Assembly (NCBI GenBank): GCA_964353355.1
Contig: CAYGVT010000066.1
Location: 9,989-73,988 of the forward strand
Length of the DNA stretch: 64,000 bases
Direction: 5' to 3'
Origin: an uncultured Thermoplasmata archaeon
GTDB taxonomy: Archaea > Thermoplasmatota > DTKX01 > GCA-020343715
In this document: positions 17,518 to 57,000 of the stretch, piece by piece
Layout: each line of letters begins with the position of its first letter
Position numbering within the stretch: the stretch's first letter is position 1
Notes under the pieces: model-generated
Seen by the model: the letters and a program-made list of their open reading frames with translations, nothing else
The model's database searches: none
What the model was told of the DNA's origin: nothing
Program-made: the position numbers and the translations under genes

Positions 17518-17518
17518 C

Positions 17519-25627: not shown

Positions 25628-25720
25628 GGTGGCGTGCGGGCGTGCGCCACATTCGCTGAACCCCCCGTAAGCAATATCTCCCCCCTTCGCCATAGGGGGC
25701 ATTCCCCGCGGGAGAGGGAC

Positions 25721-36267: not shown

Positions 36268-36309
36268 AGGCGACAGGTATTTGAACGCCCCATGTCCGTG
36301 CCACTCCGG

Positions 36310-37503: not shown

Positions 37504-37606
37504 TGCTGGCCACCACGGCAAGCCTTTTATGTGGCCAGCACCCTTAGCGAGGGATGTGAGGCCCACGCAGGGTAGGAAGGGAGTAGTTGGCACGGAGGAG
37601 GTCCGC

Positions 37607-40431: not shown

Positions 40432-40851
40432 CTACTTCCCCAGCTCCTTGAGCTTCGCGTCCATTATTGGGACGTAGTCGCCGACCGCGAGCATCCGGCC
40501 GAACTCTGACGGGTCGGCCGGCCTGACCTTGATGACCCAGCCCTTGCCGTAGGGGTCCTCGTTGATGACGAGCGCGTCGTCCTCGACGGATTCGTTGTAG
40601 GCCTCGACCGTGCCGGACACGGGCGCGTAGAGCTTGCCGACCCACTTTCCGGTCTCGATGGTGCCGAAGGGCTTGTCCTTGGTGACGGCGTCGCCCTCCA
40701 TGGGCATGTCCACGTAGACGATGTCGCCCGCGAGCCTCTGGGCGAAGTCGGTCACGCCGACGACGACCAGCTCGCCCTCCATCCGGGCCCACATGTGCTC
40801 CTTGTGGTAGCGGACGTCCTCGGCCAGCTTGTATCCCTTGTGCTCCATGCG
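40432..40851 (-). CDS. glycine-cleavage-H-like lipoyl-carrier protein (second copy; LbpA-like position next to the hdr cluster)
   Basis: 139 aa. GVTDFAQRLAGDIVYVDMP...FGTIETGKWVGKLYAPVSGTVEAYNESV aligns with the GcvH lipoyl-lysine region (ESVKAASDIYAPVSGE). Confidence 0.72.
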   Translation of the reverse strand, partial: RMEHKGYKLAEDVRYHKEHMWARMEGELVVVGVTDFAQRLAGDIVYVDMPMEGDAVTKDKPFGTIETGKWVGKLYAPVSGTVEAYNESVEDDALVINEDPYGKGWVIKVRPADPSEFGRMLAVGDYVPIMDAKLKELGK

Positions 40852-41124: not shown

Positions 41125-41715
41125 ATGGCAGAAGGACCCCCCGGGGATTACCCCCTCGTCACGGACGCCGAGACCGACCCTGGCTTCGCCGACCGCATCA
41201 GGGCGACGCCTGGAGGCGAGGGCATCCTGCGGTGCTACGCGTGCGGCACCTGCTCCGCGAGCTGCCCCATCCGCGCCATCGACGAGGAGTTCAACCCCAG
41301 GCGCATCATCCGCCTGGCCCTGCTCGGGCTCAGAGACGAGGTCCTGCGGTCGCAGTTCATATGGCTGTGCACCGGCTGCTTCATCTGCCAGGAGCGGTGC
41401 CCCCAGGACGTGCGCATCACGGACCTCATGATGGCGCTGCGCAACATCGCCACCGAGGAGGGATGGCCGCACCCGACCGTGCAGGCCATCGCCGAGATGC
41501 TCGAGGCGCACGGGGCCGTGCTCGAGACGGGAGATTTCGAGAACGAGAGGCGCGCCAAGGCCGGCCTTCCGCCGAGGCGCCCGCCGGCGCAGCCCGTCCG
41601 CGACATCATCGAGGGCACCGGCCTCGCCGCCAGGCTCAAGGAGGCCAAGGCCAGGGCGGCGAAGGCGCAATCCGACGACGCGCTGGCGGCCAAGGCAGGC
41701 GGAGGTGGGGCGTGA
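41125..41715 (+). CDS. hdrC: heterodisulfide reductase subunit C-like (two [4Fe-4S] ferredoxin motifs)
   Basis: CYACGTCSASCP and CTGCFICQERCP. The stop overlaps the hdrB start (TGATG). Confidence 0.82.
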   Translation: MAEGPPGDYPLVTDAETDPGFADRIRATPGGEGILRCYACGTCSASCPIRAIDEEFNPRRIIRLALLGLRDEVLRSQFIWLCTGCFICQERCPQDVRITDLMMALRNIATEEGWPHPTVQAIAEMLEAHGAVLETGDFENERRAKAGLPPRRPPAQPVRDIIEGTGLAARLKEAKARAAKAQSDDALAAKAGGGGA

Positions 41716-42617
41716 TGGCACAGGGACGGTCGTACGCGCTCTTCCTCGGCTGCAACGCCCCGGTCCGCACCCTCAACTACGACATGGCCACCCGCGCAGT
41801 GCTCACGGGGCTCGGCGTGCGCTTCGTGGACCTCGACGGCTTCGCGTGCTGCGGCTACCCCCTCGAGGCCGCCGACCACCTCACGGCCGTCACGATGGCC
41901 GCGCGCAACATCGCGCTCGCGGAGGCCCAGGGGCTGGACGTGCTCGCCATCTGCTCCGCGTGCTCGGGCACGCTCATCCGCGCGCGCCACGAGCTGCTGC
42001 ACGACGAGAGCCTCAGGAAGGATGTCAACGCGCGCCTGCGCAAGGAGCACATCGAGTTCCGCGGCACGGCCAAGGTCGAGCACCTGCTGAGGTTCCTGCA
42101 CGAGGGGGTCGGTATCGAGCGTCTGCGCTCGCACATCACGCGCCCGCTCACCGGATGGCGCGTGGCCGTGCACTACGGCTGCCACTACCTCAAGCCCTCC
42201 GAGGTCGTCGGGGGCGAGGACGACCCCGAGGTGCCGCACACCGTCGACGAGCTCGTCGCGGTCACGGGCGCGACCTCTGTGCCCTACGCCGAGCGCCAGC
42301 TCTGCTGCGGCGGCGGCGTGCTCGGCTACCGCGAGGCCGACTCGCACAAGCTCATCGCCAAGAAGCTCGACTCCGTCGTCGCCGCGGGCGCGGACGCGCT
42401 CGAGGTGCACTGCGCCTTCTGCGCCGTGATGTACGACGGCAACCAGAAGGCGGCCGAGCGCGCCGCGGGCAAGGCCTGGAACGTGCCGGTCCTGGTCTAC
42501 CCCCAGCTCCTGGGCCTCGCGATGGGCATCGGCCCGGAGGAGCTGGGCTTCAGGCACAACCGCGTGAGGGCCCGGGAGCTGCTCGCTCGCCTCGAGGGGG
42601 TGAGCGCGGCGCGATGA
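41715..42617 (+). CDS. hdrB: heterodisulfide reductase subunit B-like (CCG domains)
   Basis: Two CCG cysteine-rich motifs (GFACCGYPLE, QLCCGGGVLG) plus CSACSG and HCAFCA. 301 aa. Confidence 0.88.
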   Translation: MAQGRSYALFLGCNAPVRTLNYDMATRAVLTGLGVRFVDLDGFACCGYPLEAADHLTAVTMAARNIALAEAQGLDVLAICSACSGTLIRARHELLHDESLRKDVNARLRKEHIEFRGTAKVEHLLRFLHEGVGIERLRSHITRPLTGWRVAVHYGCHYLKPSEVVGGEDDPEVPHTVDELVAVTGATSVPYAERQLCCGGGVLGYREADSHKLIAKKLDSVVAAGADALEVHCAFCAVMYDGNQKAAERAAGKAWNVPVLVYPQLLGLAMGIGPEELGFRHNRVRARELLARLEGVSAAR

Positions 42618-45610
42618 CGCGCGCCGCGCTGGTCCTGGGCGGCGGCGTCGCGGGGGTCCAGGCGGCCCTCGACCTCGCCGACGCGGGCTACTTGGTCCAT
42701 CTGGTCGAGCGCTCGCCCTCCCTCGGCGGCAACATGATCCGCCTCGACAAGACGTTCCCCACGAACGACTGCTCCGCGTGCATCCTCTCGCCAAGGCTCG
42801 TGGAGGCGGGGCGCCATCCGCGCATCCACCTCCTCACCAGCTCGGACCTCGTGTCGCTGGAGGGCGAGGCGGGCGCGTTCACCGCCAGGGTCGTCGAGCG
42901 GCCCCGCTACGTTGACATGGCGGCGTGCGTGGGCTGCGGCGCGTGCTCCGAGGTCTGCCCCGTCAAGGTCCCGAGCGAGTTCGACCTGGGGCTCAGCAAG
43001 CGCAAGGCCATCTACATCCCGTTCCCGCAGGCGGTGCCCCTCAAGTACGTCATCGACCCCGCGCACTGCCTCAAGCTCACCAAGGACAGGTGCGGCCTGT
43101 GCGCGCGCACATGCCAGGCGGGCGCGGTCGACTACGACGCCAAGCCCGTGGAGCACGTGCTCGACGTGGGCGCGGTCGTGGTCGCGACGGGCTTCCAGCA
43201 GCTCGACGCGTCCCGCCGACCCGAGCTCGGCCACGGCCGCCTCAGGGACGTCGTCACGGGCCTCGAGCTCGAGCGCATGCTCTCGGCCTCCGGCCCCACC
43301 GGCGGCAAGGTCCTGCGGCCGTCGGACGGCAATGTGCCGGGGCGCGTGGCGTTCGTGCACTGCGCCCTCTCGCGCGACGTGCGCCGGGGCGTCGCGCACT
43401 GCTCGCGCGTGTGCTGCATGTACCTCGTGAAGGAGGCGATGGTGCTGCGCGAGCACCACCCGGGCGCGGAGGCGACGCTGCTGCACATGGACCTGCGCGC
43501 CTTCGGCAAGGGCTACGACGCCTACGTCGACCGCGCGGGGGCGTCCGGCATCAGTTTCGTGCGCGGCCGCGCGACCGAGGTCCAGGAGGACGGGCGGGGA
43601 GGGCTCGTCGTGCTCGCCGAGGACGAGGAGGGCCGGCCCGTGCGCGTGGGCGCGGACCTCGTCGTGCTCGGCACGGCCATCGTGCCTGCGGAGGGCGCGT
43701 CCGCGCTCGCGGGCGCGCTCGGCCTCGGGCTCGACGCCGCGCTCTTCCTCGCCACCGACCCGGACGACCCCGCGCAGCTGCGCACGACGCGGCCCGGCGT
43801 CCTCGTCGCTGGCTGCGCATCCGGCCCCAGGGACGTGCCGGACAGCGTCGCCCAGGGCTCCGCGGCCGCAGCGGCCGCGGCCACGCTCCTGCGCGACCAT
43901 CGCATGCCGGTCCCCCCGCCCGAGGTGCCCGTGACCGACCCCGCCGCCGAGCCCCGCGTCGGCGTCTTCGTCTGCCACTGCGGCTCCAACATCGCGGGCG
44001 TGGTCGACACCCGCGCCGTCGCGGAGGCGGCGCGCGCGCTCCCCGGCGTGGTCCATGCGGAGGAGAACGTCTACACCTGCTCCCAGGACGCGCAGGTCGG
44101 CATGGCGCGCACCATCCACGGGCTTGGGCTCAACCGCGTCGTGGTCGCGGCGTGCTCGCCGACGACGCACGAGCCGCTGTTCCGCTCGACGCTGGTCGCG
44201 GCGGGCCTCGACCCGCACCTGCTGGACATGGCGAACATCCGCAACCAGTGCTCATGGGCGCATGCGGGGGAGCCCGCGGCCGCGACCGCGAAATCCGTCG
44301 ACCTCGTGCGCGCGTCCGTCGCGAGGGCGCGCGCCCTCGAGCCACTCGGCAGCGGCGTCGCCGAGGTGACTCCCAGGGCCCTCGTCGTCGGTGGCGGCGT
44401 GGCGGGCATGGCCTCGGCCCTCGCGCTCGCGCCCCACGTGGAGGTCACACTGGTGGAGCGGGCGGACCGCCTCGGCGGCACGGCCCGGCGCCTTTCCACG
44501 ACATTCCCCGACGGGGAGGCGGGCGCCGACATCGTAGGACGCCTCGAGCGCGCCGTCCGGGCCGCGGGCGTCCGTGTGCTCCTGGGGGCCAGCGTCGAGT
44601 CCGTGGGCGGTCACGTGGGCAGCTTCGCCTACAGGCTTGCGACCGCCGAAGGGCCCGTGGAGGGCAGCGCGGGCGCCATCGTCATGGCAGTGGGCGCGAC
44701 GCCCTACGAGCCCGCCAAGGGCGAGCACGGCCGCGGGCACCCGGCGGTCGTGACCAGCCTCGAGCTCGAGGAGGAGCTGCAAGAGAAACCGGAGGGTCGG
44801 TCGTACGCGTTCATCCAGTGCGTCGGCTCCCGCGCCGACGGCCGCGGCTGCTCCCGCTACTGCTGCCAGGCCACGCTGCAGCAGGCGCGCGAGCTCGCGG
44901 AGGCGGGCAACCGCGTCGTGGTGCTGCACCGCGACGTGCGCGCCTACGCCGCGCGGGGCGAGGAGGCCTACCGCGCCGCGCGCGAGGCGGGCGTGCTGTT
45001 CGCGCGCTACGTGCCGGACCGCCCACCAGCGGTCAGCGACGCGCTCTGGGGCAAGGCCCTGGTGCGGTGGCGCGACCCCGTCGCGCTCCGCACCGTGGAG
45101 CGCCGCGTCGACCGCGTCGTGCTCGCGGTCGGATTGCGCCCACCCGAGGGGCTCGCGGAGCTCAGGGCGATGCTGAAGCTCCCCGGCGACCCCGAGGGCT
45201 TCCTGCTAGAGCGGCACCCCAAGCTCGGGCCCGTCGAGACCAACACCGAGGGCGTCTACCTCGCGGGCGCGTGCCAGTACCCCATGTCCATCCCGGAGGC
45301 CGCGGCCGCGGGCGCGGCGGCGGCCATGAAGGCGCTTGGCCCGCTCGGCCGCGGTTGGGTCCCGACCGAGGCCGGCACCGCCGAGGTCGACCGCGACGGA
45401 TGCATCGGCTGCTCGCTTTGCGTGAGGCTGTGCCCATACGGCGCCATCTCCAAGGACGCCGAGAACCGCGCGGCGGTCGCATCGGCGCTCTGCAAGGCGT
45501 GCGGCCTGTGCGCGGCCTCGTGCCCCGTGCGCGCCATCTCCGTGCGCCACTTCCGCGACGGCCAGCTCGTCGCCCAGGTGCGCGCCCTCGCGGGGGGTGA
45601 CGCGCCGTGA
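42614..45610 (+). CDS. hdrA: HdrA-like flavoprotein, tandem double unit (998 aa): FAD domain with inserted ferredoxin, then the HdrA N-domain, a second FAD domain and a C-terminal 2x[4Fe-4S] ferredoxin
   Basis: Two Rossmann motifs (LVLGGGVAGVQAALDLA at aa 6, ALVVGGGVAGMASALALA at about aa 600). LDKTFPTNDCSAC. Inserted Fd CVGCGACSEVCP/CGLCARTCQ. Internal N-domain VGVFVCHCGSNIAGVVD. C-terminal CIGCSLCVRLCP/CKACGLCAASCP. Start overlaps the hdrB stop (ATGA). Confidence 0.88.
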   Translation: MTRAALVLGGGVAGVQAALDLADAGYLVHLVERSPSLGGNMIRLDKTFPTNDCSACILSPRLVEAGRHPRIHLLTSSDLVSLEGEAGAFTARVVERPRYVDMAACVGCGACSEVCPVKVPSEFDLGLSKRKAIYIPFPQAVPLKYVIDPAHCLKLTKDRCGLCARTCQAGAVDYDAKPVEHVLDVGAVVVATGFQQLDASRRPELGHGRLRDVVTGLELERMLSASGPTGGKVLRPSDGNVPGRVAFVHCALSRDVRRGVAHCSRVCCMYLVKEAMVLREHHPGAEATLLHMDLRAFGKGYDAYVDRAGASGISFVRGRATEVQEDGRGGLVVLAEDEEGRPVRVGADLVVLGTAIVPAEGASALAGALGLGLDAALFLATDPDDPAQLRTTRPGVLVAGCASGPRDVPDSVAQGSAAAAAAATLLRDHRMPVPPPEVPVTDPAAEPRVGVFVCHCGSNIAGVVDTRAVAEAARALPGVVHAEENVYTCSQDAQVGMARTIHGLGLNRVVVAACSPTTHEPLFRSTLVAAGLDPHLLDMANIRNQCSWAHAGEPAAATAKSVDLVRASVARARALEPLGSGVAEVTPRALVVGGGVAGMASALALAPHVEVTLVERADRLGGTARRLSTTFPDGEAGADIVGRLERAVRAAGVRVLLGASVESVGGHVGSFAYRLATAEGPVEGSAGAIVMAVGATPYEPAKGEHGRGHPAVVTSLELEEELQEKPEGRSYAFIQCVGSRADGRGCSRYCCQATLQQARELAEAGNRVVVLHRDVRAYAARGEEAYRAAREAGVLFARYVPDRPPAVSDALWGKALVRWRDPVALRTVERRVDRVVLAVGLRPPEGLAELRAMLKLPGDPEGFLLERHPKLGPVETNTEGVYLAGACQYPMSIPEAAAAGAAAAMKALGPLGRGWVPTEAGTAEVDRDGCIGCSLCVRLCPYGAISKDAENRAAVASALCKACGLCAASCPVRAISVRHFRDGQLVAQVRALAGGDAP

Positions 45611-46371
45611 GCTTCGAGCCGCGCATCGTGGGGGTGCTCTGCAACTGGTGCTCCTACGCGGGCGCCGACCTAGCGGGCACATCGCGCATCCAGTACCCCC
45701 CGAACGTGCGCGTGGTGCGCGTCATGTGCTCGGGGCGGGTCGACCCGCGGCTCGTGGTCGAGGCGCTGCTCTCGGGCGCGGACGGGGTGCTCGCGCTCGG
45801 CTGCCACCCGGGCGACTGCCACTACCAGACCGGCAACCTGGAGGCGCGCGAGAAGTTCGAGGCCCTCAAGGCCGTACTCGCGCTCACGCGCGCCGCGGCG
45901 GGCAGGTTCGACTATGACTGGGTCTCGGCCTCCGAGGGCGCGAGGTTCGCCGAGGTCGTCACCGCCTTCACCGTGCGCGTGCGCGCGCTGGGCCCGGTGC
46001 CGCGCGACGACGCGTCGCGCCGCGAGCTGCGCGCCGCGCTGCGCGAGGCGGGCGAGTTCCGCACGCGGTGGCTCGTGGGCCGCGGCAGGCGCATCCAGCT
46101 CGAGGGCGACGCCTACGGGCAGCCCGTGGACGCCGCCAGGTGGGGGGACATCGTCGGCGCCGTGCTGCGGGAGCAGTTCACGCGCGCGCTCATCCTCGAG
46201 CGCGCGTCCGAGGGCGCCGTGACGGTCGAGGAGCTCGCCTCGCTCACGGGTCTCGAGCCCGCGACCGTGCTGAGGCACGTCCAGAGGCTCCGCGCCAAGG
46301 GCGACATCGCCATCGAGGGGGCGCGCGGCCGGTCGCCGCTGTGGAGGACGACGGGGGTGGTCGGCGAATGA
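45607..46371 (+). CDS. mvhD: MvhD-like [2Fe-2S] protein fused to a C-terminal winged-helix-like domain
   Basis: The N-terminal 140 aa match MvhD (IVGVLCNWCSYAGADLAG...VMCSGRVDP...GCHPGDCHY). The C-terminal about 110 aa contain VTVEELASLTGLEPATVLRHVQRLRAKGDI. GTG start overlaps the hdrA stop. Confidence 0.78.
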   Translation: MSFEPRIVGVLCNWCSYAGADLAGTSRIQYPPNVRVVRVMCSGRVDPRLVVEALLSGADGVLALGCHPGDCHYQTGNLEAREKFEALKAVLALTRAAAGRFDYDWVSASEGARFAEVVTAFTVRVRALGPVPRDDASRRELRAALREAGEFRTRWLVGRGRRIQLEGDAYGQPVDAARWGDIVGAVLREQFTRALILERASEGAVTVEELASLTGLEPATVLRHVQRLRAKGDIAIEGARGRSPLWRTTGVVGE

Positions 46372-49300
46372 CCTCCGCACCGACCGAGAGGCCCAAGGAC
46401 GCCGGGGCCGCACCGACACAGCAGGCCCCCGTGGGCTCAGTGCTCGTGGTGGGCGGGGGCATCGCGGGCATGCAATCCGCGCTCGACCTCGCCGGCGCGG
46501 GATTCCTGGTCCACGTCGTCGAGGAGAGGGGCGGCATCGGAGGGTGGATGTCGCGGCTCGACAAGACGTTCCCCACGAACGACTGCTCCATGTGCATCCT
46601 CGCGCCCAAGCTCGTCGAGGTGGGCCGCCACCCCAACGTGCGCCTGCGCACGAGCGCCCGCCTCCTGGGCCTCGAGGGCGAGGCCGGCGCCTTCGTGGCG
46701 ACCGTGGAGGAGACCCCTAGGTACATCGACCCCGCCAGGTGCACCGGCTGCAGCCTGTGCGCGCAGTGGTGCCCGGTCGATGCCGTGTCCGACTACGACA
46801 AGGGCGTCGGGGACCGCCCCGCGGTGTCGGCGCTGTTCCCCCAGACCGTGCCCCTTGTCTACTCCATCGACCGCGACGCGTGCATCGGCTGCGGGCTGTG
46901 CGCCGAGGTCTGCGCGGCGCGTGCGGTCGACTACGCGCAGAAGGCCAAGGTCGAGCGCGTCCCGGTGGGCGCGGTCGTGCTCGCGGCGGGCTTCGAGGAC
47001 GTGCCCGGCACCGTCCGGCCGGAGTACGGCTGGGGCCGGTTCCCCAACGTGGTGACCTCGCCGCAGTTCGAGCGCATCCTGGCGGCGTCCGGGCCCTACG
47101 CAGGCGAGGTGCTGCGGCCCTCCGACGGCACGCGACCGGCGAGGATCGCCTGGTTGCAGTGCGTGGGCTCGCGCGACGAGCGCCGCGGCAGGCCCTACTG
47201 CTCCTCGGTGTGCTGCACCTACGCCACCAAGGAGGCGGTCATCGCCAAGGAGCACCTCGGCCGCGGCTCGGTCGACTGCCACATCTTCTTCATGGACATG
47301 CGCACCTTCGGCAAGGGCTTCGAGGAGTACTTCGACCGCGCCCGCAACGACTACGGGGTCAGGTACACCAGGTGCCGCATCGGGGAGGTCGTCGAGGACC
47401 CCTCCACGCACGGCCTCGAGGTCGTGTTCGAGGACGAGGGGGGGCGCGCGGGACGCGAGCGGTTCGACATGGTCGTGCTCGCGACCGGCCTGGACCCGCC
47501 AGCGGGGGGGCGCGAGCTCGCGGCCGCGACGGGCGTGGAGCTCGACGCGCACGGGTTCGTGCGCGCGGGCGTGTTCGGCCCCGTGGACACGTCGCGCCCG
47601 GGCGTGTTCGCCTGCGGCGCTCTCTCGGGCCCCAAGGACATCCCCGACACGGTCGCGTCTGCGTCCGCGGCCGCTGCCAGGGCCGCGTCCATCGTCGCGC
47701 CCTCGAGGGGCGCGGAGGTCGTGGCGCCCGTGCTGCCCGAGGAGATCGACGTCGCCTCCCAGGACACGCGCGTGGGCGTGTTCGTGTGCCACTGCGGCAT
47801 CAACATCGGCGGTGTCGTCGACGTGCCCGCGGTCGTCGAGCACGCAAGGCGGCTGCCGGGCGTCGCGTGGGTCGAGGACAACCTCTACACCTGCTCGCAG
47901 GACACGCAGGACCGCATCGTCGAGCGCGTGCGCGAGAGCGGCATCAACCGCGTCGTCGTGGCGTCGTGCACCCCGCGCACGCACGAGCCCCTCTTCCAGG
48001 GCACCATCCGCAAGGCGGGCCTCAACCCGTACCTCTTCGAGCTCGCGAGCCTGCGCGAGCACTCCTCCTGGGTCCATCGGGACGACCCCGAGGCCGCGAC
48101 CCTGAAGGCCATGCGCCTTGTCGACATGGCCGTGGACAAGGTCCGGCGCGCGATGCCCGTGCGAAAGGAGCTCGCGCCCGTCGAGCCCGTGGGCCTTGTC
48201 ATCGGCGGCGGGCCCGCGGGCATGGCCGCCGCCCTCGGCATGGCCGACCAGGGCATCCGCACGGTGCTGGTGGAGCGCTCCGACCGGCTGGGCGGCGGGC
48301 TGCTCCGGCTCCCCCACATCCTCGAGCCCGAGGACCCCGCGCGGGCCCTCCGGGAAATGATAGCGCGCGTCACGTCCTCGCCCCTCGTGGAGGTGCTGCT
48401 GTCCTCCGAGCTCTCCTCCTTCTCCGGGGTCGTGGGCGGCTTCGACGCCGTCGTGCGCACCCCCGCCGGTGAGCGGCCCGTGCGCGTAGGCGCCGTCATC
48501 GTCGCCACGGGCGCGCGCGAGCTCCGGCCCGCGGGCGAGCACCTCTACGGCGAGGACGCGCGGGTCATGACCTCGCTCGAGGCCGGCGAGGCCCTGGAGG
48601 CGGGCACCTTCCCGACCCGGGGTGCGGTCGCGTTCGTCCAGTGCGTCGGCTCGCGCATCCCGGAGCGGCCCCAGTGCTCGCGCGTGTGCTGCTCCACGGC
48701 CGTGAAGAACGCCATCCGCATCAAGGAGCGCGACCCCGAGCGCGAGGTCGTTGTGCTCTACCGCGACGTCCGCACCTACGGCATGCGCGAGGCGGCCTAC
48801 CGGCGCGCGCGGGAGCTCGGCGTCCTGTTCGCGCGGTTCGAGCTCGAGGCCCCGCCCAGGGTCGTGCGCGACGGGGGCTCGCTGCAAATCGAGTGGACGG
48901 ACCTGGTCGCGCGCAGGCGTGTGCGGCGCCGCGTCGGGGCCGTCGTGCTCGCCTCCGCGAGCCTGCCCGCCGAGGGCACGGAGGGGCTCGCGCGCATGCT
49001 CAAGGTGCCGCTCGACGAGCGGGGCTTCCTGCTCGAGGCCCACATGAAGATCCGCCCGCTGGACTTCGCCACCGACGGCGTGTTCCTCGCGGGCGCATGC
49101 CACTCCCAGAGGTTCCTCGACGAGGCCATCGCGCAGGGCCTCGGGGCGGCCTCGCGCGCCTCGACCATCCTGGCCAACCCCACGGTGCTGACGGAGGGGC
49201 TGCCCGCGCGCGTGGACGAGGCGAGGTGCACCGGCTGCGGCACGTGCGAGGCAAACTGCGCGTACGAGGCCATCAAGGTCGACCCCGCGCGGGGGGTCGC

Positions 49301-49445
49301 GGTCGTGAGCGGCGTGCTGTGCAAGGGCTGCGGAACTTGCGCGTGCGTGTGCCCGTCGGGCGCGGTGTCGCTCCCGCGGTACGAGAAGGAGCAGCTGTGC
49401 GCGATGATAGAGGACGCGGTTCTGCCGGAGAGGGGGGTGGGCTGA
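46368..49445 (+). CDS. hdrA: HdrA-like flavoprotein, second tandem double unit (1025 aa)
   Basis: Same architecture as 42614..45610: VLVVGGGIAGMQSALDLA, LDKTFPTNDCSMC, Fd CTGCSLCAQWCP/CIGCGLCAEVC, internal VGVFVCHCGINIGGVVD, second Rossmann GLVIGGGPAGMAAALGMA, C-terminal CTGCGTCEANC/CKGCGTCACVCP. Confidence 0.88.
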   Translation: MTSAPTERPKDAGAAPTQQAPVGSVLVVGGGIAGMQSALDLAGAGFLVHVVEERGGIGGWMSRLDKTFPTNDCSMCILAPKLVEVGRHPNVRLRTSARLLGLEGEAGAFVATVEETPRYIDPARCTGCSLCAQWCPVDAVSDYDKGVGDRPAVSALFPQTVPLVYSIDRDACIGCGLCAEVCAARAVDYAQKAKVERVPVGAVVLAAGFEDVPGTVRPEYGWGRFPNVVTSPQFERILAASGPYAGEVLRPSDGTRPARIAWLQCVGSRDERRGRPYCSSVCCTYATKEAVIAKEHLGRGSVDCHIFFMDMRTFGKGFEEYFDRARNDYGVRYTRCRIGEVVEDPSTHGLEVVFEDEGGRAGRERFDMVVLATGLDPPAGGRELAAATGVELDAHGFVRAGVFGPVDTSRPGVFACGALSGPKDIPDTVASASAAAARAASIVAPSRGAEVVAPVLPEEIDVASQDTRVGVFVCHCGINIGGVVDVPAVVEHARRLPGVAWVEDNLYTCSQDTQDRIVERVRESGINRVVVASCTPRTHEPLFQGTIRKAGLNPYLFELASLREHSSWVHRDDPEAATLKAMRLVDMAVDKVRRAMPVRKELAPVEPVGLVIGGGPAGMAAALGMADQGIRTVLVERSDRLGGGLLRLPHILEPEDPARALREMIARVTSSPLVEVLLSSELSSFSGVVGGFDAVVRTPAGERPVRVGAVIVATGARELRPAGEHLYGEDARVMTSLEAGEALEAGTFPTRGAVAFVQCVGSRIPERPQCSRVCCSTAVKNAIRIKERDPEREVVVLYRDVRTYGMREAAYRRARELGVLFARFELEAPPRVVRDGGSLQIEWTDLVARRRVRRRVGAVVLASASLPAEGTEGLARMLKVPLDERGFLLEAHMKIRPLDFATDGVFLAGACHSQRFLDEAIAQGLGAASRASTILANPTVLTEGLPARVDEARCTGCGTCEANCAYEAIKVDPARGVAVVSGVLCKGCGTCACVCPSGAVSLPRYEKEQLCAMIEDAVLPERGVG

Positions 49446-51233
49446 GTGCCTGGGCTCAGGAGACAGGGAGGGCTGCGCAGGCTCGTGCTGCTGCCGCCGT
49501 GCGACGAGGAGTTCGCGAAGGCCGTGGACCTGGGGGGCCTCGCGCGCGACCTGGAGGCCGTGGGCGTGGCCTCGCGCGCCGATGCGCGGCTGTGCGGCCC
49601 GGGCCGCGACGCCGTGGTCGCCGAGCTCGTGAGGGCGACCGGGGCGGAGGCCATCGTCGTGGGCGGGCCCAGCCCCCGGACGCACGGAGACGAGTGGCGG
49701 CGCGCCGCCAAGGGCGCGGGCGTGCCTCCCGACCGGGTCGAGGTCGTGCCCCTCTGGGGCCAGTGCGCGCACCTGGCCGGTGCCCCGGGCGCCGCGGCGC
49801 GGCGCGCGCGCATCATGCTCGAATCCGCGCTCGCGCGCGTCGACCTGGGCACCGACCGCGCGGCGCGCTCGGTCGCGGCGTCGCAGTCGGTCCTCGTCAT
49901 AGGCGGCGGCGTCGCGGGCATGCAGACGGCCGTCGACCTCGCCGACATGGGGCACCGTGTGCACCTGGTCGAGCGCGGGGACGCGCTGGGGGGCAGGGCC
50001 TTCGTGCTCTCTCGCACCCACCCGACGCACGAGTGCAAGCCCGACGGGTGCTGCCCCGAGAGCTGCCGCGACTGCGTCCTCACCCCAAAGCCGGACATGG
50101 TCGCCACGCGCGCGGACATCGAGGTTCTGCTGGGGAGCGAGGTTGTGTCCATCGCCGGTGGCATCGGCGGATACCGCGCGACGGTGCGCACGCCGCAGGG
50201 CGAACGCGCGGTCGACGTGGGCGCCATCGTGGTGGCGACCGGCACGGTCCTCTTCGACCCCGCGGAGATGCCCGAGCTGCTGCCAGGGCACCCGGACGTG
50301 GTGACGTCGCTCGGGCTCGAGGCGATGCTCGACCGCGCCCGCAAATCCCAGCGCCCGCTCGCCAGGCCCTCCGACGGCGCCGTCCCGGCCAGGGTCCACT
50401 TCCTCCAGTGCGTGGGCTCGCGCGACACGCACCACGGCACGCGCGAGTGCTCGATCGTCTGCTGCACCTACGCGGTGGGGCAGGCGCTCGAGCTCAAGCG
50501 CACCCTGCCGCCAGGCAGCCGCGTCGCGGTCCACTACATCGACATGCGAGGGCCCTACCGCGGCTTCGAGGACCTCTACCTCGAGGCCCAGGAGGCCGGG
50601 GTGCTGTTCCTGCACGGACGGGTGGCGCAGGTCGAGCCCCGCGGCGGCGCGCTGCTCGTCGAGGGCGAGGAGGGCACGACGGACGAGCCGACCACGTGGG
50701 AGGCAGACCTGGTCGTGCTCTCGGTCGGCCAGCTGCCGTCGCCCGGCACCAGGGAGCTCGGTGCGATGCTGGGCGTGCCCTTCGACGAGGACGGCTTCCT
50801 CATGGAGTACAACGCCCACTGGGGCGTTCTGGAGCGGCGCGGGGTGCACGTCGTGGGCTGCGCCGCGGGGCCGCGCGGCATCCGGTACTCGGTGCGCGAC
50901 GCGCGAGAGGCCGCGCTCGCCGTCCACGTGGCGCTGCGCCACGCCAGCCTCGAGCTGGGGCTCGGCGTGGCCGAGGTTGACGACGGGAGGTGCACGGGCT
51001 GCGGTCAGTGCGTGGAGGCGTGCGAGTACGGCGCGGTGCGCCTCGAGGTCCGGACGGACCCGGCCACAGGGAGCAGGAGGCAGCTCGCGGTCGTCGACGC
51101 GAGGCTCTGCCGCGGCTGCGCCAACTGCGCCGTCGCCTGCCCGAGCACGGCCATCACGATGCCGGGCTTCACCGACGAGCAGATGGTGAGGGAGATAGAG
51201 CTCTCCGCGCAGCCGCGCGCGGAGGGGGGATGA
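49446..51233 (+). CDS. hdrA: HdrA-like flavoprotein, single unit (595 aa) with divergent N-domain lacking the CHCG motif
   Basis: Rossmann VLVIGGGVAGMQTAVDLA. C-terminal CTGCGQCVEACEYGAV/CRGCANCAVACP. GTG start immediately after the upstream stop. Confidence 0.78.
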   Translation: MPGLRRQGGLRRLVLLPPCDEEFAKAVDLGGLARDLEAVGVASRADARLCGPGRDAVVAELVRATGAEAIVVGGPSPRTHGDEWRRAAKGAGVPPDRVEVVPLWGQCAHLAGAPGAAARRARIMLESALARVDLGTDRAARSVAASQSVLVIGGGVAGMQTAVDLADMGHRVHLVERGDALGGRAFVLSRTHPTHECKPDGCCPESCRDCVLTPKPDMVATRADIEVLLGSEVVSIAGGIGGYRATVRTPQGERAVDVGAIVVATGTVLFDPAEMPELLPGHPDVVTSLGLEAMLDRARKSQRPLARPSDGAVPARVHFLQCVGSRDTHHGTRECSIVCCTYAVGQALELKRTLPPGSRVAVHYIDMRGPYRGFEDLYLEAQEAGVLFLHGRVAQVEPRGGALLVEGEEGTTDEPTTWEADLVVLSVGQLPSPGTRELGAMLGVPFDEDGFLMEYNAHWGVLERRGVHVVGCAAGPRGIRYSVRDAREAALAVHVALRHASLELGLGVAEVDDGRCTGCGQCVEACEYGAVRLEVRTDPATGSRRQLAVVDARLCRGCANCAVACPSTAITMPGFTDEQMVREIELSAQPRAEGG

Positions 51234-51234
51234 C

Positions 51235-51687
51235 ATGACCACCGAGGCCGCAACCACGCCCGAGGGCAAGGAGTGGAGACCGCGCATAGTGGGGTTCCTG
51301 TGCACCTGGTGCTCCTACACGGGCGCGGACCTCGCGGGTGTGTCGAGGCTGCAGTACACGCCCGAGTTCATCCCCATCAGGGTCATGTGCTCGGGGGCCG
51401 TGGACCCGGCCTACGTCATCAAGGCCCTCCTCGAGGGCGCGGACGGCGTGCTCGTCGGCGGCTGCCACCCGGGCGACTGCCACTACCTCACGGGCAACTA
51501 CAAGGCGCGCCGCCGGCTCGCGGTGCTCAAGGAGCTGCTCGAGGGCATGGGCATCGACCCTAGGAGGCTGCGGCTCGAGTGGATCTCCGCCTCCGAGGGC
51601 GGCAAGTTCGCCGCGACCGTCACCGAGATGGAACGCGAGCTTCGGGCGCTCGGCCCCAACCCGCTCCCCAAGCAGGAGCTGCTATAG
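51235..51687 (+). CDS. mvhD: methyl-viologen-reducing hydrogenase delta subunit-like protein (MvhD)
   Basis: 150 aa. IVGFLCTWCSYTGADLAG, VMCSGAVDP, GCHPGDCHY. Confidence 0.85.
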   Translation: MTTEAATTPEGKEWRPRIVGFLCTWCSYTGADLAGVSRLQYTPEFIPIRVMCSGAVDPAYVIKALLEGADGVLVGGCHPGDCHYLTGNYKARRRLAVLKELLEGMGIDPRRLRLEWISASEGGKFAATVTEMERELRALGPNPLPKQELL

Positions 51688-51690
51688 GGG

Positions 51691-52776
51691 GTGCCGAGCA
51701 TGGTGTACGCGTTCAGGTGGGCGCTGGCGGCGGGCGAGGACAGGCAGTCCGCGGCCCGACGGCTGCTGCAGGAGGCGCTGAGGAGGGGGGCCGTCGGGGC
51801 GGTGCTCGTGCCCGCGGAGCTGCCCGGGGGCGCGGGCGTGGCGTACGCGCTCGCCACCCGGCCAGAGCGGCTCGCGTCGGCCGTGCCGGTCGCGCGCGCG
51901 ATGCCCCAGTTCGGCCCCCAGGACCTCGTGCGCTCGACCGAGCCGGGAGGGGGGCCGGTGCGCATCGCCGCGGTGCTCAAGCCCTGCGAGGCTCGCGCCG
52001 TCGTCGAGCTCATAAAGCTCAAGCAGGTGGACCCCGCCAGCCTCGTGCTCATCTCCCCGGACTGCCCCGGCACGGTCGAGCTCGAGGACTACGCGGCGAC
52101 CGGTGGCACGCCCGAGAAGGACCTCCCCCTGCGGCTCGCGTGCCGCATCTGCCGGCGGCCCGTCGCCGGCAAGGACGTGGACGTCGCGCTCGGGACGGCC
52201 GGGGCCAGGGACGACGAGCTGCTGCTCGTCGCCCAGACCGAGCGGGGCCGCGCCTTCCTGGAGGCGAGCGGCGCCCAGGCAATCGAGATTCCGCACGGCC
52301 GCGCCCACGCGGTCGCGCGGCTCGTTGCCAGGGGCGAGGAGGCCCACGATGCGCAGGAGAGGGCCTCGCGCGAAAAGTACTCGCGGCCCGGGGCGATGGA
52401 ATCCTCGCTCGCGACGTGCATCAAGTGCATGAACTGCATGAACGTGTGCCCCGTCTGCTACTGCAAGGAGTGCCTGTTCTACACGGACGCGTTCAACCCC
52501 ACCGCTGGCACGCTGGCCGACAAGGCCCGGCGCAGGGGCGTGGTGCGGGTGCCCACCGAGACCGTGCAGTTCCACCTCACGCGCATGGCGCACGTGATGA
52601 CAGCGTGCGTGATGTGCGGCCAGTGCGAGAGCGCGTGCCCCACCGGCGTGCCGCTCCTCGAGATGTACGCTGGCATCAACCGGCGCATCCAGGCCCTGTT
52701 CGACTACGAGGCTGGCAGGTCGGTCGAGGAGGCCCCGCCCTTCACCGAGTTCCGGGAGGACGAGGACTTCAGCTAA
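51691..52776 (+). CDS. FrhB/FdhB-family (coenzyme F420 hydrogenase/dehydrogenase beta-like) iron-sulfur flavoprotein-like subunit with 2x[4Fe-4S] ferredoxin motifs
   Basis: CIKCMNCMNVCPVCYC and CVMCGQCESACP. N-terminal about 200 aa resemble the FrhB_FdhB N-terminal domain. Terminal gene of the hdr cluster. Confidence 0.65.
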   Translation: MPSMVYAFRWALAAGEDRQSAARRLLQEALRRGAVGAVLVPAELPGGAGVAYALATRPERLASAVPVARAMPQFGPQDLVRSTEPGGGPVRIAAVLKPCEARAVVELIKLKQVDPASLVLISPDCPGTVELEDYAATGGTPEKDLPLRLACRICRRPVAGKDVDVALGTAGARDDELLLVAQTERGRAFLEASGAQAIEIPHGRAHAVARLVARGEEAHDAQERASREKYSRPGAMESSLATCIKCMNCMNVCPVCYCKECLFYTDAFNPTAGTLADKARRRGVVRVPTETVQFHLTRMAHVMTACVMCGQCESACPTGVPLLEMYAGINRRIQALFDYEAGRSVEEAPPFTEFREDEDFS

Positions 52777-53563: not shown

Positions 53564-53965
53564 CTAGTGGTGGAGCGTCTCGAGGAACGCCTCGTAGGCG
53601 TTCGCGTCCATGAGCTCGCCAACCGCCTTGAGGTCGGCGGGCTTCAGGAGGACCAGCCAACCGGCCCCGTAGGGGTCGGCGTTGATGGTCTCGGGGGCGG
53701 AGAGCAGCTTGTCGTTGGCCTTCTCGACGACGCCCGGGACGGGGCAGTAGACGTCGGACGCGGACTTGACGGACTCCACGACGCCCAGCGCCTCCTCCTT
53801 GCCGAACTTCGCGCCAGGGGTCGGCAGCTCGACGTAGACGATGTCGCTGAGCGAGTCCTGCGCATAGTCCGTGACGCCGATGCGTACCATGGCGCCCTCG
53901 ACCTTGACCCACTCGTGGCTCTTGGTGTACCGGTAGGTTGCCTCGACCTTGCTCATGGCCTCCAC
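53564..53965 (-). CDS. gcvH: glycine cleavage system H protein (lipoyl carrier)
   Basis: 133 aa. TKSHEWVKVEG, GVTDYAQDSLSDIVYVELP, lipoyl-lysine context GVVESVKSASDVYCPVPG. Confidence 0.9.
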   Translation of the reverse strand: MEAMSKVEATYRYTKSHEWVKVEGAMVRIGVTDYAQDSLSDIVYVELPTPGAKFGKEEALGVVESVKSASDVYCPVPGVVEKANDKLLSAPETINADPYGAGWLVLLKPADLKAVGELMDANAYEAFLETLHH

Positions 53966-54031: not shown

Positions 54032-57000
54032 TCAGCCCTTCGGCGCGGGTCCCTTGGTCAGGTCGGCCTGCTTCCTCGCGGCCGCGTCCTCGGGGGGCGC
54101 GTCGTCGGGCTTCGCGGGGTCGCGGAACCGCATGAGGACGACGGCCTCCTCGGCCCAGGTGATCCTGTCGCCGAGCTTGAGGGAGGACACGGCCTTGGGC
54201 TCCTCCTTGCCCCTCGGCGGCACGAGGACGCCCAGGGGGGTACCGGGCTCCGTGAACCGGTCCTCGAGGAGGGCCTGGCCCACCTGCCGCCCGTCGGGGA
54301 GGCTCGCGCAGCTCGTGACGTGGCCCACGACCTGGCCCTGGCGGTTGGCGACGGGCGAGCCGGGCTTGACGACGGGTATGCCGCGCTTGCCCATGCGGAA
54401 CCTGGCCAGCCGCATCGTGCGCTTGGGGTCCCTCTCGGCCATGGGGCCGCGCCCGACGAAGAATGGCTTGTGGAACCGCACGAACTGCGGGTAGCCCGCC
54501 TCGATGGGGTTGATGCCGTGCTCGCCCGCGAGCTCGTGGCCGTAGAGCGGGTAGCCTGCCTCGGTCCTCGTCGAGTCGCGCGCGCCCAGGCCCGCGACCA
54601 CGAGGCCGTGGGGCCTCCCGGCCTTGAGCAGGGACTCCCACAGCTGCGGCGCGTCGGACGGGTGGACGAACAGCTCGAAGCCCACCGGCTCGCCGGTGTA
54701 GCCGGTCCTGGCGATGATGACGTCAACGCCTGCTACCGCGCCCTGGCACAGGTTGGTGCGGCGCAGCGAGGTCACCCTCTGGGCCAGAGACGCGTCCTGG
54801 ACGCACTCGAGCAGGACCTTGGTCGAGACCGGGCCCTGGATGCTGATGTCGACGCGCTGGTCGCGGCCTGCCTTCGGGTCCTTGAGGTTGCGCAGCTCGA
54901 ACGAGTCGCAGTCGATCTCGACCCATGGGCGGCCGCCGTCGATGACGTACTGCTTCGAGATGACCGCCTGGAGCCAGTCCCAGTCCTTCTCGGCGTTGGC
55001 CGCGTTGACCACGACCATGAAGTTGTCAGGGGCGCGCCGGTAGATCCACAGGTCGTCGATGGCGCCACCGTCGGGGCCGAGCAGGATGCCGTAGGAGGAC
55101 TCGCCCGGGTGCAGGCGCGGCACGAACGGCGTCGTGACCAAGTCGAGGAACCGCTCGGCGCCCTCGCCCCTGACCTCGAACACGCCCATGTGGGAAACGT
55201 CGAACAGCACGCCCGTCGTGCGGCACGCCTGGTGCTCCTCCGATATCTTGGTGTACCACACCGGCATCAGCCAGCCCGCGAAGGGCACGATGGTCTTGGT
55301 GCGCTCCTTGTGCCACTCGTAGAGGCACGTCTTGCGCGGCTCGACACCGGGGTCCCTCCAGGACCACCGCTTCTTGTCGGACTCGGGCCTGAGCATGCCG
55401 CACACGACGCCCTGGCCGATGAAGTACGGCTTCTGGGGCGTGACCATGCCCGCCGGGGCGTTGAGCACGTTGTCGCCCTCCGGCTCGAGCATCTCACCGC
55501 GCACCGGCGACGCGCCCGTCCCCAGCAGCGCCTCCCAGACGACCTGCGCGTCCTCGACGCGGCAGACGACCTCGAAGCCGTCCGAACCGCCCCAGGTAGA
55601 CCTGTTGACGAGGGCCTTGCCCTTGCCCACCTCGACCTCGGCCGCCTGGCCCAGGTTGAGGCCCTTCGGGCCGGTGAGCCTGCCCATGGCCTTGATGGCA
55701 CCCTTGCCCTTGAGGGCCATGAGCGCGACCTTGCGAGCCGCGGGGTGGCTGAGGTCCTCGACCACGACCGGACCGTCGACCTTGCGGAGCAGGTCCTCGC
55801 CGTCGATGAGCGTGTAGCCGTCGGACACGTACCGCAGGTGTCCCACGAGGCGGTCGTGGCGGCCCCTGTGCGCGATGAGGAGGTACCGGTCCTCGCCGGC
55901 CCCCGTCGGGGGTTCCCGGACGACGACCACGTCGTCGATGACGCGGCCGTCCTTGTCGAGCACGTATGCGCGGGCGGACTGGTGCGGCTTGAGCCTCCAG
56001 ACGTCGGCCGTAACCACACCCTGCACGAACATCCGCGCTCGCTCGCCGGTGACGCGGCACACGCCATGGGCCGTCGCGTCGACCGCCTGCACGCTCTCGC
56101 CCTTGACGGGCCGGCCCTGGAACAGCGGCATCGCCTCGCCCGTGTCCTGGCCGGGGATGCGGAAGTAGTGCGGGTAGCCAGAGATGATCTGGTCGGGCCT
56201 CAGCACGCCCGTGTCCCGCATGAGCTGCTCGACCTCGCGCTTGGTCTGCTCGAACATCATCACGTCGACCTTCGCGCGGCCGCGCGGCTTCCGCGCGCCG
56301 TGGTAGTGGTAGACGTGCATGCCCTTGAGCACGCGCGCGATGATGCGCCCGAGCCGGCGGAAGTCGTCGGGGCCCCAGCCAAGCTGGGTCATCCAGGTCG
56401 TTCCCAGGCGGATGGCCGTCGGGTGGACGGCGCTGTCGTCGCCGGCCTTGGTGTTCTTGTTGAGCGTGATGCCGCACATGTCCAGGATGCGGGACACTAT
56501 CTCGCCCCTCGCCGTCTCGCCCGTGATGGTCGGCACGCGGTTGAGGTCGACCATCACGTAGTGGCAGTCCGTGCCACCGTAGGCCAGGGGGACGCCCTCG
56601 GCCTCGAGCGTCTCGCCGAGGACGCGCGCGTTCTCCTTGACGGCGCGCTGCATGAGGCGGAACGCCTCGGTCTTGGCGATGCCGAAGCACACTGCCTTGC
56701 CCGCGATGGCGTTGATGTGCGGACCGCCCTGCTCGCCGGGGAAGACCGCGAAGTCGAGCCGCTTGCCGAGCTCGGGGTCCGTCGACATGATGACCGCGCC
56801 GCGGGGGCCGCACATGGTCTTGTGGGTGGTGAACGTGATGACGTCGGCGATGCCCACCGGCGTGGGGAACTCCCCGGCCGCTACCAGGCCAGCGGGGTGC
56901 GCGATGTCGGCCAGCAGGTGGGCCCCGACGTCGGACGCGATGTCCTTGAAGGCCTTCCAGTCGATGGTGCGCGGGTAGGCCGAGTAGCCCGCGATGAGGA

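Follow-up and report, generated by a model that had tools for sequence, protein, structure and literature searches.

Two fused HdrA proteins of a Thermoplasmatota-like archaeon are probable covalent asymmetric HdrA dimers

We analyzed a 64,000-nucleotide stretch of DNA (hereafter the window; contig CAYGVT010000066.1 of assembly GCA_964353355.1, positions 9,989 to 73,988) from an uncultured Thermoplasmata archaeon, in which a single compact operon on the + strand encodes subunits related to heterodisulfide reductase (Hdr). Its eight genes follow the order hdrC-hdrB-HdrA-1-long MvhD-HdrA-2-HdrA-3-short MvhD-FdhB-like, with a single hdrCB pair set against three hdrA genes. HdrA-1 and HdrA-2 are further examples of the known fused (type II, BamE-like) HdrA, a design that is itself already described. 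Each chain probably forms a covalent asymmetric HdrA dimer, in which the N-terminal unit (unit A) would bifurcate electrons and the flavin of the C-terminal unit (unit B) would be non-bifurcating. An initial annotation of this DNA had singled out the interval 42614-51233 for its double flavin adenine dinucleotide (FAD) units; the long MvhD gene, which lies inside that interval, was absent from it. The genes of the operon are as follows.

41125-41715, + strand: hdrC-like, first gene of the operon, two [4Fe-4S] ferredoxin-type motifs (Pfam Fer4_8/Fer4_17)
41712-42617, + strand: hdrB-like, disulfide-reducing subunit with two CCG domains (Pfam CCG, twice)
42614-45610, + strand: HdrA-1, fused two-unit HdrA (type II, BamE-like), 998 aa (Pfam, phmmer, alignment to 5ODC)
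45607-46371, + strand: long MvhD, a BamF-like adaptor with FlpD at residues 7-129 (Pfam, 3.8e-48) plus a C-terminal winged helix-turn-helix (wHTH) at residues ~193-249 (HTH_11/HTH_29)
46368-49445, + strand: HdrA-2, second fused two-unit HdrA, 1025 aa (Pfam, alignment to 5ODC)
49446-51233, + strand: HdrA-3, single-unit HdrA, 595 aa (Pfam, alignment to 5ODC)
51235-51687, + strand: short MvhD, FlpD only, 150 aa (Pfam FlpD, 6.1e-53; NCBIfam VhuD-like, 126 bits)
51691-52776, + strand: FdhB/FrhB-like iron-sulfur (flavo)protein (phmmer against the PDB)

Each long HdrA consists of two units with complementary domain losses

Both long proteins carry two Rossmann motifs (GGGVAG at residues 9 and 593 of HdrA-1; GGGIAG at residue 29 and GGGPAG at residue 613 of HdrA-2), 584 residues apart in each case, much as the initial annotation had described them (about 600 aa apart). 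It had also placed the N-domain motif CHCG(S/I)NI in the middle of the protein rather than at the N-terminus, and we find this motif at residue 454 of HdrA-1 and residue 474 of HdrA-2. A hidden Markov model (HMM) of the TrxR core gives two matches per long protein, and Pfam finds Pyr_redox_2/NAD_binding_8 twice in each, on residues 588-699 in the second unit of HdrA-1. In a phmmer search of the PDB, HdrA-1 matched the HdrA of Methanothermococcus thermolithotrophicus (5ODC; E = 2.7e-196) in three separate and permuted stretches, with residues 2-337 aligned to 143-475, residues 446-599 to 3-156 and residues 814-991 to 468-648. The domain order, T1-I-T2-N-T1-T2-C, is permuted and split over two TrxR units and is not that of canonical HdrA; the NCBIfam HdrA/HdrA2 models score under their cut-offs (938 vs 1100).

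Residues 3-648 of 5ODC chain A were rebuilt from the printed alignments, the register being checked by C194, C197, C386, C399, C403 and C404 all falling on cysteines, and the rebuilt chain was aligned with the half-proteins by MAFFT; conserved positions such as Cys194, Cys197, E356 and K409 are named after it. A TrxR domain with GxGxxG and the TrxR cluster cysteines (C386, C399, C403, C404) is present in all five units of the operon (units A and B of HdrA-1 and HdrA-2, and HdrA-3). Unit A, which spans residues 1-439 of HdrA-1 and 1-459 of HdrA-2, contains a TrxR domain with Cys194/Cys197, a full inserted ferredoxin (8 Cys), the four TrxR-cluster cysteines and both E356 and K409, and lacks an N-domain and a C-terminal ferredoxin. 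In unit B, the MvhD-like N-domain and its cysteines are followed by a TrxR domain whose GxGxxG/Glu fingerprint and cluster cysteines are intact and by a C-terminal ferredoxin; Cys194/197 and the entire inserted ferredoxin domain are missing. E356 and K409 occur together only in the N-terminal units: unit B of HdrA-1 keeps the E356 equivalent and has Gln756 at the K409 position, and in unit B of HdrA-2 the K409 lysine is retained but E356 is replaced by Gly. These parts map as follows.

42614-43930, + strand: HdrA-1 unit A, TrxR1, Rossmann motif at residue 9, Cys53/Cys56 equivalent to Cys194/197 (5ODC alignment)
42899-43147, + strand: HdrA-1 inserted 2x[4Fe-4S] ferredoxin, residues 96-178 (5ODC alignment)
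within 42614-43930, + strand: HdrA-1 unit A TrxR cluster cysteines C250/C263/C267/C268, with E220 and K273 equivalent to E356/K409 (5ODC alignment)
43949-44341, + strand: HdrA-1 internal MvhD-like N-domain, CHCG at residue 454, C489, C514, C546 (phmmer)
44375-45352, + strand: HdrA-1 unit B, TrxR2, G593/G595/G598 and E615 kept (5ODC alignment)
45380-45583, + strand: HdrA-1 C-terminal 2x[4Fe-4S] ferredoxin (Pfam Fer4/Fer4_21 at residues 923-976; eight invariant cysteines)
46368-47744, + strand: HdrA-2 unit A, inserted ferredoxin at 46719-46943, E356 and K409 kept
47769-48146, + strand: HdrA-2 N-domain (5ODC alignment, Pfam)
48186-49178, + strand: HdrA-2 TrxR2 (5ODC alignment, Pfam)
49191-49412, + strand: HdrA-2 C-terminal ferredoxin (5ODC alignment, Pfam)

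Since the domain losses of units A and B are complementary, one chain is, judged by its domain content, the set of parts of one asymmetric HdrA dimer. In canonical HdrA, the partner unit contributes the Cys197 that completes the N-domain cluster. By motif count, each chain holds cysteine sets for seven [4Fe-4S] motifs and two FAD-site Rossmann fingerprints, and this predicted cofactor complement is that of one asymmetric dimer and not an extra wire. The internal N-domain of HdrA-1 is 53% identical to that of 5ODC.

The initial annotation had described each protein as a FAD-plus-inserted-ferredoxin unit fused in front of a complete HdrA. Its first half stands, since the alignment to Methanothermococcus HdrA identifies the first ~430 aa as a genuine HdrA TrxR and ferredoxin unit; the second unit is not complete, as it lacks the inserted ferredoxin and Cys194/Cys197. 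Variants with a complete second unit do exist among the relatives (~1100 aa, at least 33 of the 128 retrieved), and HdrA-1 and HdrA-2 do not belong to them. An NfnB/GltD-like first domain, as in type III/HdrL, was also considered and rejected: the GltD domain that, along with a further NAD(P)H Rossmann fold, marks HdrL-type HdrA (PF14691, Fer4_20) has no Pfam match in HdrA-1, HdrA-2 or HdrA-3, and residues 2-337 of HdrA-1 align with HdrA residues 143-475.

Conservation among 64 homologs (44-92% identity) differs between the units. C53, C56, E220 and K273 of unit A and all cluster cysteines are invariant in 64 of 64, and so are G593/G595/G598, E615 and G621/G622 of unit B. The K409 equivalent of unit B varies (K in 27, Q in 12, H in 11, T in 7, others in the rest), and its Cys194/197 stretch has no cysteine in any homolog. 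The bifurcation signature E356 plus K409 is accordingly E and K in 64 of 64 for unit A, with K in 27 of 64 for unit B. An AlphaFold2 model of HdrA-1 built on the homolog alignment is confident as a single body (predicted local distance difference test 91.9, predicted template modeling score 0.92). Using Foldseek, it matched 8rvu_a over 432 columns (template modeling score 0.96, root mean square deviation 1.5 Å, 48% identity), a match whose length and identity point to unit A, the aligned residues themselves not being displayed, and 5odc_A over 653 columns. The PDB copy searched holds no fused HdrA of ~1000 aa.

The fusion is genuine and appears to be ancient

The fused genes are genuine and are no product of assembly or frameshift. 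Their reading frame is unbroken with a third-position GC content (GC3) of 0.84-0.92, the measure by which we told real genes from spurious open reading frames (ORFs) in this window of ~70% GC. The eight-gene operon recurs with matching gene lengths on independent contigs, at 92% identity in locus L082 and 69% in locus L081, and the fused HdrA proteins predicted in these counterparts measure 996-1000 aa and 1026-1050 aa. A frameshift or assembly error joining two genes, a concern raised in the initial annotation, is ruled out by the continuous frame, the high GC3 and the repetition of these lengths on independent assemblies. Gene starts in the operon overlap or abut the preceding stops (the hdrB stop overlaps the HdrA-1 start), and GGAGG/GGGGG-type, Shine-Dalgarno-like sequences precede the internal gene starts; hdrC is preceded by GGAGG, and the 270-bp intergenic region holds boxes that are AT-rich and TATA-like.

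When one genome per species was scanned, relatives of the fused HdrA turned up at no fewer than 599 loci in bacteria and archaea, and 80 kept loci match nearly the whole protein (query residues 1 to ~991). The view that multiple flavins per polypeptide are unusual for HdrA thus does not hold, as the architecture is widespread and published (PMC9012536, PMC12054007, PMC9430772, bioRxiv 10.64898/2026.04.10.717634).

The TrxR cores of unit A and unit B share only 35-37% identity within one protein, compared with 52% (unit A) and 46% (unit B) between HdrA-1 and HdrA-2; identity to 5ODC is 45-46% for unit A and 36-38% for unit B. With a TrxR-core HMM of 245 columns, we extracted 527 units from 277 retrieved relatives. 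For 249 of the 251 two-unit proteins, unit A had as its nearest neighbor the matching unit of another protein, the same being true of unit B, and mean core identity was 43.6% between A units, 40.1% between B units and 33.5% between A and B within one protein. Because the units cluster by unit class and A-B identity is low, the fusion appears to be old and to join two diverged HdrA lineages, a result that rests on identity and not on a model-based tree; HdrA-1 and HdrA-2 would then be later duplicates of an already fused gene. The old fusion agrees with the analysis of Lyu et al. 2025, in which the separated halves of type II HdrA fell on branches independent of each other, close to classes A6 and A12 (PMC12054007).

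The internal tandem duplication proposed in the initial annotation is therefore unsupported as a recent event, given 35-37% identity within each protein against 46-52% between the paralogs and the 249 of 251 matching neighbors. A recent tandem duplication of one hdrA, or an artifact joining two adjacent hdrA genes, strikes us as exceedingly improbable. Unfused, adjacent and complementary HdrA pairs are known elsewhere as tandem HdrA5/6 and 12/13 (PMC9012536), and in one of the 251 two-unit relatives the units are 81% identical, which may reflect a real recent internal duplication there. For the proteins of the window, however, both the low identity between units and the neighbor test speak against duplication, and an artifact is difficult to reconcile with the continuous frame at high GC3 and with equal lengths on independent assemblies and at the many bacterial and archaeal loci.

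Proposed electron path and the role of the second flavin

In the covalent asymmetric dimer that we favor, unit A (TrxR1) would supply the FAD with the E356/K409 signature and the Cys194-Cys197 pair, its TrxR [4Fe-4S] cluster would lead to HdrC/HdrB, and its inserted two-cluster ferredoxin would serve as the low-potential exit. Unit B would supply the N-domain cluster, the C-terminal two-cluster ferredoxin through which electrons would enter from MvhD, and, in TrxR2, a second FAD pocket. At the level of the operon, the FdhB-like protein and the two MvhD adaptors would feed mid-potential electrons to the C-terminal ferredoxin domains. By analogy with 5ODC and BamE, these electrons would reach the TrxR1 flavin of unit A and bifurcate there, one branch passing from the unit A TrxR cluster through HdrC to HdrB, and the other from the N-domain cluster (completed by unit A Cys56) through the inserted ferredoxin to a low-potential acceptor.

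The TrxR2 pocket no longer carries the whole bifurcation signature, and its flavin is most likely non-bifurcating and largely structural, as in BamE, the "fused HdrA dimer" of the class II benzoyl-CoA reductase of Geobacter metallireducens solved by cryo-EM, in which the N-terminal FAD (Lys280) bifurcates and the second FAD (Gln768) lies off the branch point and was judged structural (bioRxiv 10.64898/2026.04.10.717634). The branched or bifurcating wire that the initial annotation had suggested is weakened by this precedent and by the confinement of the complete E356 and K409 signature to the N-terminal units. Several points weigh against our reading. BamE was likened to the proteins of the window through its published description rather than by direct sequence alignment, and the FAD in TrxR2 is itself predicted from the invariant Rossmann fingerprint and from BamE. 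In addition, unit B of HdrA-2 retains the K409 lysine (with E356 lost), as do 27 of the 64 homologs at this position, so a catalytic second flavin is possible in some members, and Lyu et al. make the case for possible bifurcation at both sites when the two residues are retained (PMC12054007).

That both flavins of each chain are catalytic, giving two bifurcation or branching points, nevertheless seems quite unlikely. Such an arrangement would fit the invariant Rossmann fingerprint of unit B, the lysine kept in unit B of HdrA-2 and the E356 kept in that of HdrA-1, as well as published reports that K409 and E356 are both conserved in 75% of type II sequences, in which both domains could bifurcate (PMC12054007), and that both E/K pairs are conserved in the HdrA of Moorella thermoacetica (Kremp et al., PMC9430772). 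However, each unit B here lacks one of the two residues (Q756 in HdrA-1; E356 to G in HdrA-2), the lysine position varies over the homologs where that of unit A is invariant, unit B has neither the Cys194/197 pair nor an inserted-ferredoxin exit of its own, and the second FAD of BamE is not at a branching point. It is very unlikely, in turn, that unit B is a flavin-free scaffold for the N-domain and the C-terminal ferredoxin, leaving one FAD per polypeptide. The greater divergence of unit B (36-38% identity to 5ODC, vs 45-46% for unit A), its missing bifurcation signature and the failure of phmmer to align residues 600-813 to 5ODC would be in keeping with a lost cofactor, but the glycines G593/G595/G598 and G621/G622 and the ribose-binding E615 are invariant in the 64 homologs, Pfam FAD/NAD Rossmann families fall on residues 588-699, and the second TrxR of BamE holds FAD in the cryo-EM map (bioRxiv 10.64898/2026.04.10.717634). 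Read as a covalent asymmetric HdrA dimer, the double flavin unit is already explained and opens no new question.

HdrA-3 belongs to a separate family of single-unit proteins

The third HdrA was correctly described in the initial annotation as a single unit with a degenerate N-domain: its one Rossmann motif lies at residue 153, and LLPPCDEEF takes the place of CHCG. Its parts are as follows.

49446-49865, + strand: degenerate N-domain, C11 and C78 each replaced by Pro (5ODC alignment)
49881-50942, + strand: TrxR without inserted ferredoxin, K409 replaced by Gly (5ODC alignment)
50034-50075, + strand: Cys-rich motif CKPDGCCPESCRDC at the Cys194/197 site, residues 197-210 (5ODC alignment)
50967-51200, + strand: C-terminal ferredoxin (Pfam, 5ODC alignment)

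In a HMMER scan of 1.84 billion representatives, the closest relatives of HdrA-3 are stand-alone proteins of ~560-600 aa (60% to 38% identity), followed by the C-terminal halves of fused HdrAs. The stand-alone proteins share a common plan of N-domain, TrxR without inserted ferredoxin and C-terminal ferredoxin, with Gly at K409, and the 60% relative has also lost the two N-domain cysteines. A five-cysteine motif, C-x2/5-CC-x3/4-C-x2-C, occupies the Cys194-x2-Cys197 site throughout the family (proteins P0129-P0143) and could ligate an extra cluster. We also considered HdrA-3 as a free copy of unit B. This is true only in part: phmmer matches HdrA-3 over its full length to the fused C-terminal halves, yet its core (245 columns) is roughly equidistant from the two units (33% identity to unit B and 35% to unit A) and it groups with its own ~580-aa family. 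HdrA-3 is thus best placed, on its sequence relationships, in a separate family of K409-less, stand-alone, single-unit HdrA proteins.

Partner subunits and a recurrent paired module

The hdrB and hdrC products score below the equivalog cut-offs of the CoB-CoM enzymes (NCBIfam CoB_CoM_SS_B, 257 bits vs a cut-off of 345; CoB_CoM_SS_C, 112 bits, also under its cut-off). Since HdrB keeps both CCG motifs, with both C...CC...CxxC motifs visible in the translation, the high-potential acceptor is likely a disulfide. This disulfide may not be that of coenzyme M and coenzyme B (CoM-S-S-CoB), because HdrB and HdrC fall below these cut-offs and the window shows no methanogenesis genes. In a phmmer search of the PDB, the best-fitting entries for the FdhB-like protein include beta subunits of formate dehydrogenase that belong to Hdr complexes (8rvu_E, 6.2e-24; 7bkb_E, 9.5e-19); the protein has only a marginal match to Pfam FrhB_FdhB_C, and is a likely candidate for the input subunit through which mid-potential electrons enter from F420H2 or another hydride donor.

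Of the 82 loci fetched, ~20 have the long MvhD gene placed between two fused HdrA genes. The module fused HdrA-long MvhD-wHTH-fused HdrA-short MvhD occurs in Thermoplasmata, Methanomassiliicoccales, Bathyarchaeia, Asgard archaea, Desulfobacterota and Chloroflexota (for example, L001, L008, L015, L036, L038, L045, L060 and L080), and the cited literature assigns no function to it. In an identity-based neighbor-joining tree, the two HdrA positions of the module form separate clades in Desulfobacterota and lineage-specific duplicates in several archaea. An ancient orthology by position, with position 1 HdrA-1-like everywhere, is therefore unsupported in general, as the two proteins of several archaeal loci pair as closest relatives.

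GcvH genes and wider genomic context

Genes for GcvH flank the operon on both sides, together with a fused gene for tetrahydrofolate (THF)-dependent serine hydroxymethyltransferase (SHMT) and the glycine-cleavage T protein (GcvT) 1.3 kb downstream of it. To our knowledge, such an SHMT-GcvT fusion is unusual.

40432-40851, - strand: GcvH paralog with lipoyl-lysine motif ETGKW, divergent from hdrC (Pfam GCV_H; NCBIfam gcvH, 120 bits)
53564-53965, - strand: canonical GcvH with motif ESVKS, downstream of the operon (Pfam/NCBIfam)
54032-57637, - strand: SHMT-GcvT fusion, 1201 aa, SHMT at residues 91-433 and GcvT at residues 772-1049 (also in L082)

The ETGKW paralog is a possible operon partner. 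A GcvH of this type adjoins the operon in L082 (7845-8261) and, on the opposite side, in L081 (14776-15189). Among loci L002, L003, L006, L007, L020 and L036, GcvH-fold genes also lie ~1.7-7 kb upstream of fused hdrA at Desulfobacterales, delta-proteobacterial and Bathyarchaeia loci and ~9 kb upstream at a Thermoplasmatales locus; several of the GcvH-fold genes near fused hdrA are without the lipoyl lysine (ETWMF, RRNGN). The persistent linkage makes GcvH a testable candidate for the disulfide carrier of HdrB, an idea already raised for other archaea, namely Culexarchaeia.

A more far-reaching arrangement, in which the operon forms one supercomplex, is unlikely in our estimate. HdrA-1 and HdrA-2 would then be a heterodimer of pseudo-dimers that replaces the (BamE)2 core, linked by the long MvhD-wHTH, with two bifurcating flavins in series or in parallel; the input arm would consist of the FdhB-like protein, the short MvhD and HdrA-3, and HdrCB would reduce or oxidize the lipoyl disulfide of the ETGKW GcvH in place of CoM-S-S-CoB. 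If true, this would tie glycine cleavage and one-carbon folate metabolism to ferredoxin reduction in a Thermoplasmatota-like archaeon, and the recurrent module of two fused HdrAs with long and short MvhD would be an unstudied class of double-bifurcation enzyme.

The sHdr/LbpA system was rejected as an explanation of the operon. Its marks are an HdrA of ~340 aa with one FAD and one cluster, the gene order hdrC1B1A-hyp-hdrC2B2, and lbpA with a dedicated lipoate ligase. The HdrAs here are multi-domain proteins of 595-1025 aa, sHdrA (6tjr_A) matches only residues 183-427, and there is a single hdrCB pair; although GcvH-type genes lie nearby, neither a further hdrCB pair nor a gene for lipoate ligase was recognized near the operon.

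The window belongs to an archaeon and encodes an MCM protein, DUF424, a two-subunit aconitase X (AcnX), and HMG-CoA synthase together with thiolase. The sole named relatives of its MCM are Thermoplasmata/Thermoplasmatota metagenome-assembled genomes (53-57% identity). Genes for HMG-CoA synthase with thiolase lie at 16441-18688 (+ strand), and those for the large and swivel subunits of aconitase X at 36292-38005 (+ strand); two-subunit aconitase X is linked to the archaeal-type mevalonate pathway. The same window that carries the archaeal MCM gene (25634-27889) also holds a gene for QueH, epoxyqueuosine reductase (2397-3029, + strand), and a QueA-type gene (4713-5768, - strand). QueH and QueA are bacterial-type tRNA modification genes, and their presence in an archaeal window is unexpected. 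Three ORFs on the + strand with coding-type GC3 have no Pfam match (5866-8931, 23936-25627 and 34735-36267; 1021, 563 and 510 aa).

Comparison with known Hdr systems

All HdrA domains and cluster cysteines of the HdrABC-MvhAGD complex (5ODC) are present in the long HdrAs, with identities of 51-53% for the N-domain, 46% for the C-terminal ferredoxin and 45-46% for the unit A TrxR core, and HdrB likewise has both CCG motifs. Whereas 5ODC is a symmetric dimer of two identical 654-aa chains with two complete domain sets, one chain here distributes one domain set over two non-identical units, and the window has no hydrogenase genes (mvhA/G). Other fused-HdrA variants among the relatives (P0014-P0061, P0030, P0041) include proteins of ~1100-1130 aa in which both units carry an inserted ferredoxin, of ~1355 aa with an MvhD domain fused on, and of ~1500-1565 aa with a GltD-type module (PF14691).

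HdrA homologs of more than 1000 aa in anaerobic methanotrophic archaea were described as fusions of two HdrAs with complementary loss of Cys197 and N-domain (Chadwick et al. 2022, PMC9012536), and type II HdrA as classes A6 and A12 joined in one protein, its genes clustering with hdrBC, mvhD, fdhB and sometimes an extra type I hdrA (PMC12054007). HdrA-1 and HdrA-2 resemble these proteins (classes A3/A4; HdrA3/4) in having two TrxR domains in one chain, an N-terminal half like class A6 (without N-domain and C-terminal ferredoxin), a C-terminal half like A12, Cys197 and the N-domain in complementary halves, and the same kind of gene cluster (PMC12054007, PMC9012536). They differ in that the known examples come from methane- and alkane-metabolizing archaea, whereas the host here is Thermoplasmatota-like with no methanogenesis genes seen in the window; the cluster has no molybdopterin (FdhA-like) gene, two type II genes parted by a long MvhD are followed by a K409-less single-unit HdrA, and the operon is flanked by GcvH genes. 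The text of Chadwick et al. gives the opposite order of the halves for HdrA3/4 (PMC9012536).

The hdrC-hdrB-hdrA-mvhD gene order is shared with the MetFV-HdrCBA-MvhD systems of Sporomusa ovata and Moorella thermoacetica (Kremp et al. 2022, PMC9430772), as is an HdrA extended at its N-terminus by an extra TrxR domain, with a C-terminal part (MvhD-like domain, TrxR and C-terminal ferredoxin) that lacks the inserted ferredoxin. In S. ovata HdrA, two FAD sites are predicted and only the N-terminal TrxR keeps the E/K pair (PMC9430772), the pattern seen here. However, S. ovata HdrA is predicted to hold five clusters, its extra unit lacking an inserted ferredoxin, M. thermoacetica HdrA also bears a GltD/NAD(P)H module, and neither metV nor metF is found here.

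BamE differs from the proteins of the window in that an inserted ferredoxin complement is described in each of its units, whereas unit B here lacks one. BamD is a fused HdrBC/HdrD-like protein that passes electrons to ETF, and hdrC and hdrB are separate here; in place of BamBC (tungsten) and BamGHI (HydABC-like) genes, the operon has an FdhB-like gene and two more HdrA genes, one of them fused; and BamF carries selenocysteine, with none evident here. The likeness is nevertheless close. BamE, too, has two TrxR domains in one chain, with seven [4Fe-4S] clusters (E1-E7) reported, and a bifurcating FAD in TrxR1 with a lysine at N5, HdrA-1 Lys273 corresponding to BamE Lys280; Gln768 at its second FAD compares with Gln756 of HdrA-1, a Cys-x2-Cys pair lies near the bifurcating flavin, and the high-potential branch goes to an HdrBC-type subunit. 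BamF, an MvhD more than 100 aa longer than usual whose winged helix docks on a partner subunit (bioRxiv 10.64898/2026.04.10.717634), has its counterpart in the long MvhD gene at 45607-46371. With this operon, fused type II HdrA, together with a BamF-like long MvhD, is now known from an uncultured, high-GC, Thermoplasmatota-like lineage as well, and the remaining interest of the operon lies in the paired-fused-HdrA module and the GcvH linkage rather than in the double flavin itself.

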